64,000 nt of DNA, from assembly GCF_024502345.1 (NCBI RefSeq), contig NZ_JALDNN010000001.1; one strand, written 5' to 3'. Below, one piece after another: positions 46,151-49,156 of this stretch (position 1 is the first letter of the stretch; every line of letters begins with the position of its first letter). The DNA comes from Escherichia coli. Lineage in GTDB: Bacteria; Pseudomonadota; Gammaproteobacteria; Enterobacterales; Enterobacteriaceae. Under the pieces are notes generated by a model, which searched no databases, was not told where the DNA came from, and saw only the letters and a list, made by a program, of their open reading frames with translations. A program made the position numbers and the translations under genes.

Positions 46151-47146
46151 ATGAAAAAGAAAAGACCCGTACTTCAGGATGTGGCTGACCGTGTAGGCGT
46201 GACCAAAATGACGGTCAGCCGTTTTTTACGCAACCCGGAGCAGGTTTCCGTCGCTCTACGCGGCAAGATTGCCGCCGCTCTTGATGAACTGGGCTATATT
46301 CCCAATCGTGCGCCCGATATCCTCTCTAACGCTACCAGCCGGGCGATTGGCGTCCTGTTACCTTCTCTCACCAACCAGGTTTTCGCGGAAGTATTACGCG
46401 GAATCGAAAGCGTCACCGACGCGCACGGTTATCAAACCATGCTGGCGCACTACGGTTATAAACCGGAAATGGAGCAAGAACGCCTCGAATCCATGCTCTC
46501 ATGGAATATCGATGGACTGATCCTCACCGAACGTACCCACACGCCGCGCACCTTAAAGATGATTGAAGTGGCGGGGATCCCGGTGGTGGAACTCATGGAC
46601 AGCCAGTCGCCGTGCCTCGATATCGCCGTCGGTTTTGATAACTTTGAAGCGGCACGCCAGATGACCACCGCCATTATTGCTCGCGGGCATTGCCACATTG
46701 CCTATCTCGGCGCGCGTCTCGACGAACGTACTATCATCAAACAGAAGGGATACGAACAGGCGATGCTGGATGCAGGTCTGGTGCCGTATAGCGTGATGGT
46801 TGAGCAATCTTCTTCTTACTCTTCCGGTATTGAACTGATTCGCCAGGCGCGGCGGGAATATCCGCAGCTGGATGGCGTGTTCTGTACCAACGATGACCTG
46901 GCGGTCGGCGCGGCGTTTGAATGTCAGCGTCTGGGATTGAAGGTTCCTGACGATATGGCGATTGCCGGTTTCCACGGTCATGACATTGGCCAGGTGATGG
47001 AGCCGCGGTTAGCGAGCGTGCTGACGCCGCGTGAGCGGATGGGCAGTATTGGCGCTGAACGCCTGCTGGCGCGTATTCGTGGCGAATCTGTGACACCGAA
47101 AATGTTAGATTTAGGTTTCACCTTGTCACCGGGCGGATCTATTTAA
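46151..47146 (+). CDS. gntR: Gluconate repressor GntR (LacI family)
   Basis: 331 aa; N-terminal HTH (VTKMTVSRFL) and periplasmic-binding-fold effector domain. Confidence 0.95.
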   Translation: MKKKRPVLQDVADRVGVTKMTVSRFLRNPEQVSVALRGKIAAALDELGYIPNRAPDILSNATSRAIGVLLPSLTNQVFAEVLRGIESVTDAHGYQTMLAHYGYKPEMEQERLESMLSWNIDGLILTERTHTPRTLKMIEVAGIPVVELMDSQSPCLDIAVGFDNFEAARQMTTAIIARGHCHIAYLGARLDERTIIKQKGYEQAMLDAGLVPYSVMVEQSSSYSSGIELIRQARREYPQLDGVFCTNDDLAVGAAFECQRLGLKVPDDMAIAGFHGHDIGQVMEPRLASVLTPRERMGSIGAERLLARIRGESVTPKMLDLGFTLSPGGSI

Positions 47147-47224
47147 GCCTACAAATTTGAAGTAGCTCACACTTATACACTTAAGGCACGGATGGATATT
47201 GCTTCTGATATTGTCCGGCTGGAC

Positions 47225-47256
47225 AATGTTACCGATAACAGTTACCCGTAACATTT
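47225..47256 (+). promoter_or_regulatory. Two adjacent GntR operator sites in the gntK promoter
   Basis: AATGTTACCGATAACA and AGTTACCCGTAACATT, each a near-palindromic GntR box. Confidence 0.75.
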
Positions 47257-47284
47257 TTAATTCTTGTATTGTGGGGGCACCACT

Positions 47285-47812
47285 TTGAGCACGACTAACC
47301 ATGATCACCACATTTACGTCTTGATGGGCGTATCGGGCAGCGGCAAATCTGCGGTCGCCAGTGAAGTGGCGCATCAACTTCATGCCGCGTTTCTTGATGG
47401 CGATTTCCTCCATCCACGGCGCAATATCGAAAAAATGGCGTCTGGCGAACCGCTGAATGATGACGATCGCAAACCGTGGCTGCAGGCGCTGAACGACGCC
47501 GCGTTTGCTATGCAGCGCACCAATAAAGTGTCGCTGATCGTCTGTTCTGCACTGAAAAAGCACTATCGCGACTTGCTGCGTGAAGGTAATCCGAATCTCT
47601 CTTTCATCTACCTGAAAGGCGATTTTGATGTGATTGAAAGTCGCTTGAAAGCGCGCAAAGGCCATTTCTTTAAAACCCAAATGTTGGTGACGCAGTTTGA
47701 AACGCTGCAGGAGCCGGGTGCGGACGAAACCGATGTGCTGGTGGTGGATATCGATCAACCGCTGGAAGGTGTTGTGGCAAGCACCATTGAGGTTATTAAA
47801 AAAGGCAAATAA
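47285..47812 (+). CDS. gntK: Thermoresistant gluconokinase GntK
   Basis: Track ORF starts at 47264; start chosen at the TTG at 47285 (LSTTNHDHH... read as M) giving 175 aa; P-loop GVSGSGKS. Confidence 0.88.
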   Translation: MSTTNHDHHIYVLMGVSGSGKSAVASEVAHQLHAAFLDGDFLHPRRNIEKMASGEPLNDDDRKPWLQALNDAAFAMQRTNKVSLIVCSALKKHYRDLLREGNPNLSFIYLKGDFDVIESRLKARKGHFFKTQMLVTQFETLQEPGADETDVLVVDIDQPLEGVVASTIEVIKKGK

Positions 47813-47815
47813 GTA

Positions 47816-49156
47816 GTGACTACATTAACGCTTGTTTTAACAGCAGTAGGGTCTGTTTTACTGCTGCTGTTTTTAGTCATGAAGGCGCGTATGCACGCTT
47901 TCCTGGCTTTGATGGTGGTGTCCATGGGGGCTGGCCTTTTTTCCGGTATGCCGCTCGATAAAATCGCAGCGACGATGGAAAAAGGGATGGGAGGCACCCT
48001 CGGCTTCCTGGCGGTGGTTGTCGCCCTGGGAGCTATGTTTGGCAAGATCTTACATGAAACCGGCGCAGTCGATCAGATTGCCGTCAAAATGCTCAAATCC
48101 TTCGGTCACAGCCGCGCGCATTATGCCATCGGCCTTGCGGGGTTGGTCTGTGCGCTACCGCTGTTCTTTGAAGTGGCGATAGTTCTGCTGATTAGCGTTG
48201 CTTTCTCAATGGCGCGCCACACCGGTACGAACCTGGTGAAGCTGGTAATCCCATTATTCGCAGGCGTGGCGGCAGCGGCGGCGTTCCTGGTGCCAGGGCC
48301 AGCGCCAATGCTGCTGGCATCGCAGATGAACGCCGATTTTGGCTGGATGATCCTGATTGGCCTGTGTGCGGCAATTCCGGGAATGATTATTGCCGGGCCG
48401 CTGTGGGGTAATTTCATCAGCCGCTACGTGGAGTTGCATATTCCTGACGACATCAGCGAACCGCATCTCGGCGAAGGCAAAATGCCATCTTTCGGATTCA
48501 GCCTGTCGCTGATCCTGTTGCCGCTGGTGCTGGTGGGGCTGAAAACCATTGCCGCGCGTTTTGTGCCAGAAGGCTCTACCGCTTACGAATGGTTCGAGTT
48601 TATTGGTCATCCGTTTACCGCGATTCTGGTTGCTTGTCTGGTAGCGATTTATGGCCTGGCAATGCGTCAGGGCATGCCAAAAGACAAAGTGATGGAGATT
48701 TGCGGTCACGCGCTGCAACCGGCGGGGATCATTCTGCTGGTGATTGGTGCAGGCGGCGTGTTCAAACAGGTGCTGGTTGACTCTGGCGTAGGTCCGGCAC
48801 TGGGCGAAGCGTTAACTGGCATGGGCCTGCCGATTGCTATCACCTGCTTCGTGCTGGCAGCTGCAGTGCGCATCATTCAGGGTTCTGCCACCGTAGCCTG
48901 TTTAACGGCGGTAGGACTGGTGATGCCGGTTATTGAACAACTGAACTACTCCGGTGCGCAAATGGCGGCGCTGTCGATTTGTATCGCTGGTGGTTCGATT
49001 GTTGTCAGCCACGTTAACGACGCCGGTTTCTGGTTGTTCGGTAAATTTACCGGCGCGACCGAAGCCGAAACGCTGAAAACCTGGACCATGATGGAAACCA
49101 TCCTCGGCACTGTCGGTGCCATCGTTGGGATGATTGCGTTCCAGCTGTTGAGTTAA
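47816..49156 (+). CDS. gntU: Low-affinity gluconate transporter GntU
   Basis: 446 aa GntP-family membrane protein; GTG start 3 bp after the gntK stop. Confidence 0.92.
   Translation: MTTLTLVLTAVGSVLLLLFLVMKARMHAFLALMVVSMGAGLFSGMPLDKIAATMEKGMGGTLGFLAVVVALGAMFGKILHETGAVDQIAVKMLKSFGHSRAHYAIGLAGLVCALPLFFEVAIVLLISVAFSMARHTGTNLVKLVIPLFAGVAAAAAFLVPGPAPMLLASQMNADFGWMILIGLCAAIPGMIIAGPLWGNFISRYVELHIPDDISEPHLGEGKMPSFGFSLSLILLPLVLVGLKTIAARFVPEGSTAYEWFEFIGHPFTAILVACLVAIYGLAMRQGMPKDKVMEICGHALQPAGIILLVIGAGGVFKQVLVDSGVGPALGEALTGMGLPIAITCFVLAAAVRIIQGSATVACLTAVGLVMPVIEQLNYSGAQMAALSICIAGGSIVVSHVNDAGFWLFGKFTGATEAETLKTWTMMETILGTVGAIVGMIAFQLLS

Follow-up and report, generated by a model that had tools for sequence, protein, structure and literature searches.

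Tandem GntR boxes and the TTG initiation codon of gntK in the gluconate control region of Escherichia coli

The control region of gntK raises two questions: whether the near-palindromic sequence in front of the gene represents two operators for the gluconate repressor GntR, and at which of two in-frame TTG codons the translation of gluconokinase begins. Both were addressed in a 64,000-nucleotide stretch of Escherichia coli DNA, hereafter the window, to which all coordinates refer unless another sequence is named. A preliminary description of this region had proposed two near-palindromic GntR operators lying side by side and a gntK reading frame beginning at a TTG, with the start given by the open reading frame track, 21 bp upstream, being probably wrong.

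The genes gntR, gntK, and gntU all lie on the plus strand, between positions 46151 and 49156. The first of them (46151 to 47146) encodes a LacI-family gluconate repressor with the Pfam domains LacI HTH and Peripla_BP_1; it is annotated as gntR, and its 331-amino-acid product matched the NCBIfam equivalog NF011563 GntR over its full length (775 bits, compared with a cutoff of 433). The gntK coding sequence (47285 to 47812) specifies 175 amino acids from the initiation codon TTG at 47285 to 47287, and its product was identified by a full-length match to the gluconokinase equivalog NF008583 of NCBIfam (372 bits, compared with a cutoff of 265). It is followed by the cotranscribed gntU (47816 to 49156), which encodes a GntP-family gluconate transporter (Pfam GntP_permease, E = 2e-168) and has the same length as K-12 b4476. 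Given that gntU starts with a GTG 3 nt past the gntK stop codon, both genes of the operon begin with a non-ATG codon. Within the first ∼20 codons of gntU (in the stretch from 47816 to 47876), a hairpin of 11 pairs (47841 to 47866) followed by the T-run CTGTTTTTAG was also observed, a candidate internal attenuator of gntKU transcription. On the minus strand, a TTG-initiated open reading frame of 210 amino acids (47126 to 47758) covers the control region in full and the greater part of gntK; it carries no annotation in K-12 or in PGAP and showed no sign of being a gene.

The 321 bases around the control region were present in 5,424 of 5,426 complete E. coli genomes, where the flanking genes are annotated as gntR and gntK. 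Between the −35 hexamer and the opening codons of gntK, both included, K-12 MG1655 was identical to the window, and the only two differences were single-base changes, both intergenic and upstream of the promoter elements. Even in the most divergent E. coli strain examined, the boxes, the Shine-Dalgarno sequence, and the TTG were intact, the changes, which included a 1-nt insertion, being confined to the promoter spacer and the leader. The control region is thus very probably the known gntKU promoter-operator of the E. coli GntI gluconate system, the same element as that of K-12. The gntK operators and the TTG start are already known, and the region is in this sense a well-characterised and ordinary one.

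To locate the operators, the whole 64-kb window was searched with the motif ATGTTACCGGTAACAT, allowing up to 3 mismatches. Exactly two matches were obtained, compared with 0.15 expected by chance, and two or more matches appeared in only 2 of 100 shuffles. Box 1 (ATGTTACCGATAACAG, 2 mismatches) occupies positions 47226 to 47241, where it takes in the final 2 nt of the −10 hexamer together with the predicted +1, and box 2 (CAGTTACCCGTAACAT, 3 mismatches) occupies positions 47239 to 47254, with its centre 13 bp downstream of that of box 1; neither is assigned to a strand. An independent repeat finder returned a 13-nt direct repeat (47228 to 47240 and 47241 to 47253, with a spacing of 13) as well as inverted arms of 15 nt (47225 to 47239 and 47241 to 47255) that are 87% complementary and separated by 1 nt. 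Both boxes are thereby joined in a strandless 31-bp super-palindrome (47225 to 47255), centred on base 47240 and lying over the −10 hexamer and the predicted transcription start. The motif search and the repeat finder were therefore in agreement with the two near-palindromic operators of the preliminary description, although its "side by side" was only nearly right, the boxes overlapping by 3 bp as 16-mers and abutting only as 13-mers.

Each box is a 16-bp near-palindrome of the ATGTTACC|GGTAACAT type, as is characteristic of GntR operators, and both match the operator used experimentally for E. coli GntR (ATGTTACCCGTATCAT, from gntT). Their position is that of GntR sites as well: they lie on the promoter of a gluconate gene, gntK, 80 bp past the end of the adjoining gene of the cognate repressor, gntR.

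For a comparison across species, one genome per species was taken, which rendered 80 loci from Enterobacteriaceae. The tandem core GTTAC-N3-TAAC-N-GTTAC-N3-TAAC was present in all 80 species, whereas the leader downstream of it was variable in sequence and ranged from 43 to 112 nt in length; the boxes are thus conserved while the flanking noncoding DNA drifts. Within the 25-nt core, variation was common only at base 47240, the centre of the super-palindrome (A in 48 species and T in 32). Together with the match to the experimental motif and the literature, which calls the sites functional, this invariance substantiates the identification of the boxes as GntR operators. As a separate observation, an insertion of ∼50 nt, missing from the window and from Escherichia, was found between box 2 and the Shine-Dalgarno sequence in Klebsiella, Raoultella, and related species (loci L025, L026, L029, L030, L033, L034, L040, L046, L047, L056, and L064, at positions ∼1915 to 1992). 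It folded into a hairpin of −13 to −24 kcal/mol, with compensatory changes at 5 of 15 consensus pairs.

The promoter hexamers were assigned by cross-species conservation, anchoring the 80 species on the boxes. The putative −35 hexamer, TTGCTT (47199 to 47204, plus strand), is weak, with 3 of 6 consensus bases, and lies within the sequence ATTGCTT, conserved in the 80 species; the −10 hexamer, GACAAT (47222 to 47227, plus strand), was invariant in the 80-species consensus. The spacer between them measures 17 bp, and its 3′ part (CCGGC) was conserved while its 5′ part was variable. A generic scan for consensus promoters failed to find the gntK promoter, its hexamers being too weak, which fits an activator-dependent promoter. 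From the spacing, transcription would start at approximately 47234 to 47235; relative to this predicted start, box 1 would lie over the end of the −10 hexamer and +1, and box 2 would extend from approximately +5 to +20.

Upstream of this weak core promoter, a putative cAMP-CRP box with the consensus AA.TTTGAagTAGcTCACAC was located at 47153 to 47174 (no strand assigned), with the core TTTGAAGTAGCTCACA at 47156 to 47171. The core has a single mismatch to TGTGA-N6-TCACA and was the sole match in the window, yet 1.6 matches were expected by chance. Since the motif match alone was no better than chance, the assignment relies on position and conservation: the box was conserved in the 80-species consensus, and its centre lies ∼70.5 to 71.5 bp upstream of the transcription start predicted from spacing. 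Relative to that start, a site at −70.5 or −71.5 would correspond to a class I position.

The arrangement of the boxes admits a second interpretation, namely, that they form one composite palindromic operator of 31 bp, to which GntR would bind as one higher-order assembly or by alternating between two registers. The high complementarity of the 15-nt arms about one centre base is in accordance with it, as is the variability of that base alone within the core, which fits two operators equally. Furthermore, Ravcheev et al. find dimers 13 bp apart hard to square with known LacI-DNA structures, and the 13-bp tandem was specific to gntK among the four K-12 targets scanned. However, each box by itself fits the 16-bp motif, of which gntT, edd, and idnK have single, nonoverlapping copies, and the literature counts two sites. 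We consider the composite operator unlikely.

With regard to translation, the mechanically delimited open reading frame starts at the TTG at 47264 to 47266 (plus strand), the first start codon past the in-frame stop, and comprises 182 amino acids. The distance of 21 bp given in the preliminary description was correct, and it can be added that the upstream codon, which is not used, is itself a TTG. Alignment with the K-12 annotation, the check proposed in that description, placed the start of gntK at 47285 (NP_417894.2, 528 nt), and PGAP gives the same start in a strain whose 321-bp query region does not differ from the window. In agreement with this, the crystallised GntK of PDB entry 1KNQ (175 amino acids, MSTTNHDHH...), whose chain is a recombinant construct, aligned from residue 8 of the open reading frame, and the 175-amino-acid product showed no mismatch to it in the alignment shown, except for the initiator Met, read at the TTG. 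Similarly, positions 1 to 174 of the NF008583 profile aligned to residues 8 to 181. Since the annotated starts, the crystallised chain, and the profile are not fully independent, the boundary was tested by the species comparison.

The codon aligned to 47285 was TTG in 77 of the 80 species and ATG in the other 3 (Yokenella, Trabulsiella, and Buttiauxella); the positions compared were 47285 to 47287 of the window and 2001 to 2003 of loci L003 to L082 (142 to 144 in L015). Downstream of it, the mean column entropy at codon positions 1, 2, and 3 was 0.09, 0.04, and 0.75 bits, respectively, whereas upstream it amounted to 1.2 to 1.5 bits and the third position did not stand out, apart from a conserved G-rich block that corresponds to the Shine-Dalgarno sequence. 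Codon-periodic conservation thus starts exactly at the TTG at 47285. The Shine-Dalgarno sequence itself, GGGGG (47273 to 47277, plus strand), lies 7 nt before the TTG, with an anti-Shine-Dalgarno duplex of −8.4 kcal/mol against a window background with a mean of −2.2, in which 6% of the positions were at or below −6; pairing at or below −5.6 was obtained in all 80 species. Hence, the non-AUG codon at 47285 combines a Shine-Dalgarno sequence at a functional spacing with a boundary of coding conservation at the codon itself.

A later start at the ATG at 47324 was also considered and rejected; this codon is not preceded by a Shine-Dalgarno sequence (+1.2 kcal/mol), and initiation there would drop conserved N-terminal residues just before the nucleotide-binding loop GVSGSGKS. 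GntK is said to have been purified by Izu et al. (in FEBS Lett, 1996), with a reported N-terminal sequence in agreement with the gene.

The alternative that GntK is made as a 182-amino-acid form from the TTG at 47264, whether as the sole product or in addition to the 175-amino-acid proteoform, derives from the fact that this codon is the first start after the in-frame stop and that a start codon occurs at the same −21 offset in 14 of the 80 species. It is, however, very improbable. No Shine-Dalgarno sequence precedes 47264 (duplex of +0.6 kcal/mol), and the seven extra codons lack coding-type conservation, yielding 38 different translations among the 80 species, two of them with stops. Moreover, 36 of the 80 species lack any in-frame start from the preceding stop up to the aligned codon, the ATG of the three exceptional species sits at the codon equivalent to 47285, and 47285 is also the start in the curated annotation, in the PDB chain, and in the NCBIfam model. 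Taken together, the annotation, 1KNQ, NF008583, the 80-species boundary, and the Shine-Dalgarno sequence support the initiation of GntK translation at the TTG at 47285, as had been proposed, the TTG at 47264 being an in-frame codon that occurs in the leader by chance. The longest-ORF rule thus overextends gntK by 7 codons, which matters mainly for annotation, and the comparative data confirm the curated TTG start cleanly and independently.

Records of other kinds were also looked for. Neither N-terminal peptides of GntK nor start-site calls were found in the accessible N-terminomics supplements (TRAINSPOTTER and REPARATION), and no mapped gntK transcription start was found, the supplement of Kim 2012 being without gntK. 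Literature searches on the TTG start codon of gntK, and on gntK in combination with GntR, cAMP-CRP, and their binding sites, yielded no pertinent papers. The lack of N-terminal, initiation, and transcription-start records is unsurprising, given that gntK is repressed without gluconate.

The least credible alternative is that the palindrome works in RNA, as a 5′-leader hairpin or as a terminator of gntR read-through transcripts: although in E. coli TTTTTAATT stands after the inverted repeat, the segment from 47215 to 47275, at −8.7 kcal/mol, did not fold more stably than its shuffles (z = +0.67; 145 of 200 were at least as stable), the terminator scan gave no report of the palindrome, the T-run, unlike the boxes, was not conserved in other genera, the predicted transcription start would fall inside the first arm, and the leader from that start was less structured than shuffles (z = +1.56), so that an RNA-level role was rejected on the basis of the fold statistics, the unstructured leader, and the nonconserved T-run.

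With two overlapping GntR operators and initiation at the TTG at 47285, the control region could work as follows; the features, statistics, conservation, and coding boundary come from this analysis, and repression, release by gluconate, and activation by CRP come from the literature. The weak σ70 promoter (TTGCTT/GACAAT) would depend on cAMP-CRP bound ∼71 bp upstream of the predicted start. GntR, encoded directly upstream, would bind the two overlapping 16-bp boxes over the end of the −10 hexamer, the start, and the first ∼20 transcribed bases and, judging from this position, would block open-complex formation or promoter escape by steric occlusion. Gluconate would free GntR, relieving repression, and the short, unstructured leader, whose G-rich Shine-Dalgarno sequence precedes the TTG by 7 nt, would then direct the synthesis of the 175-amino-acid kinase.

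In line with these steps, the GntI genes gntK, gntU, and gntT are repressed by constitutively expressed GntR, which also recognises IdnR sites; gluconate abolishes GntR binding, and cAMP-CRP activates the gnt genes, according to the literature. In the passage of Ravcheev et al. (2014) that cites Tsunedomi et al. (2003), the overlapping GntR sites that precede gntKU, 13 bp apart, are called functional and conserved.

The retention of TTG in 77 of 80 species, with a switch only to ATG, suggests selection for a weak start rather than drift, although the species compared are phylogenetically nonindependent. The first base of the start codon, with its 77:3 split, had an entropy of ∼0.23 bit, compared with a mean of 0.75 at third positions. 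We would only tentatively go further and propose that the operators 13 bp apart are bound in a noncanonical manner, either by LacI-type dimers that share contacts or in one asymmetric 31-bp complex, and that a weak TTG has been selected to cap GntK synthesis; this combined proposal is possible but rather doubtful. Neither noncanonical binding nor selection on the TTG is new as a question, and the structural problem of how GntR sits on overlapping sites 13 bp apart has already been raised in the literature. The tandem operator itself belongs to the textbook account of E. coli gluconate regulation and is in use as a tight switch in synthetic biology.

The region can be compared directly with the gntKU promoter-operator of K-12 (Izu et al. 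1997 and Tsunedomi et al. 2003a, both cited in PMC4052901), which has the same gene order, gntR-gntK-gntU, and, according to the literature, the same two GntR sites 13 bp apart. The same motif was used to scan the K-12 loci of gntT, edd-eda, and idnD/idnK in addition to gntK. The gntT operators (Peekhaus and Conway 1998) have the same 16-bp GntR motif and the same logic of GntR plus cAMP-CRP, and the exact sequence ATGTTACCCGTATCAT, which is the operator of the cell-free biosensor paper, was found upstream of K-12 gntT. The boxes at gntT are, however, 141 bp apart (positions 1884 and 2025 of locus L083), compared with 13 bp at gntK. At edd, they are 222 bp apart (positions 3578 and 3800 of L084), one of them within the edd coding region. 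For its part, idnK (gntV) encodes a thermosensitive gluconokinase paralogue, a kinase of the GntK/IdnK type like GntK (TIGR01313), and a related box, ATGTTACGCATAACGT, lies between idnD and idnK (position 3007 of L085), where it was single even when up to 4 mismatches were allowed. The start of idnK is an ATG after AGGAG, whereas that of gntK is a TTG after GGGGG.

These promoters also differ in tightness. PgntK is strongly repressed by GntR in reporter assays and switched more than 1,000-fold in an inverter circuit, whereas PgntT was leakier than PgntK in the inverter assay, PidnK being leaky there as well.

Among the relatives of GntR, the operators of LacI and PurR and the double sites of RafR or ScrR resemble those of gntK in having a palindromic operator of 16 to 20 bp over the core promoter and a repressor that is released by sugar. 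Cooperative spacings in the LacI family are usually ∼21 to 22 or 32 bp, or long-range loops, and the 13-bp overlap, which precedes 110 operons and typifies the GntR orthologues, forms a class of its own (Ravcheev et al.).
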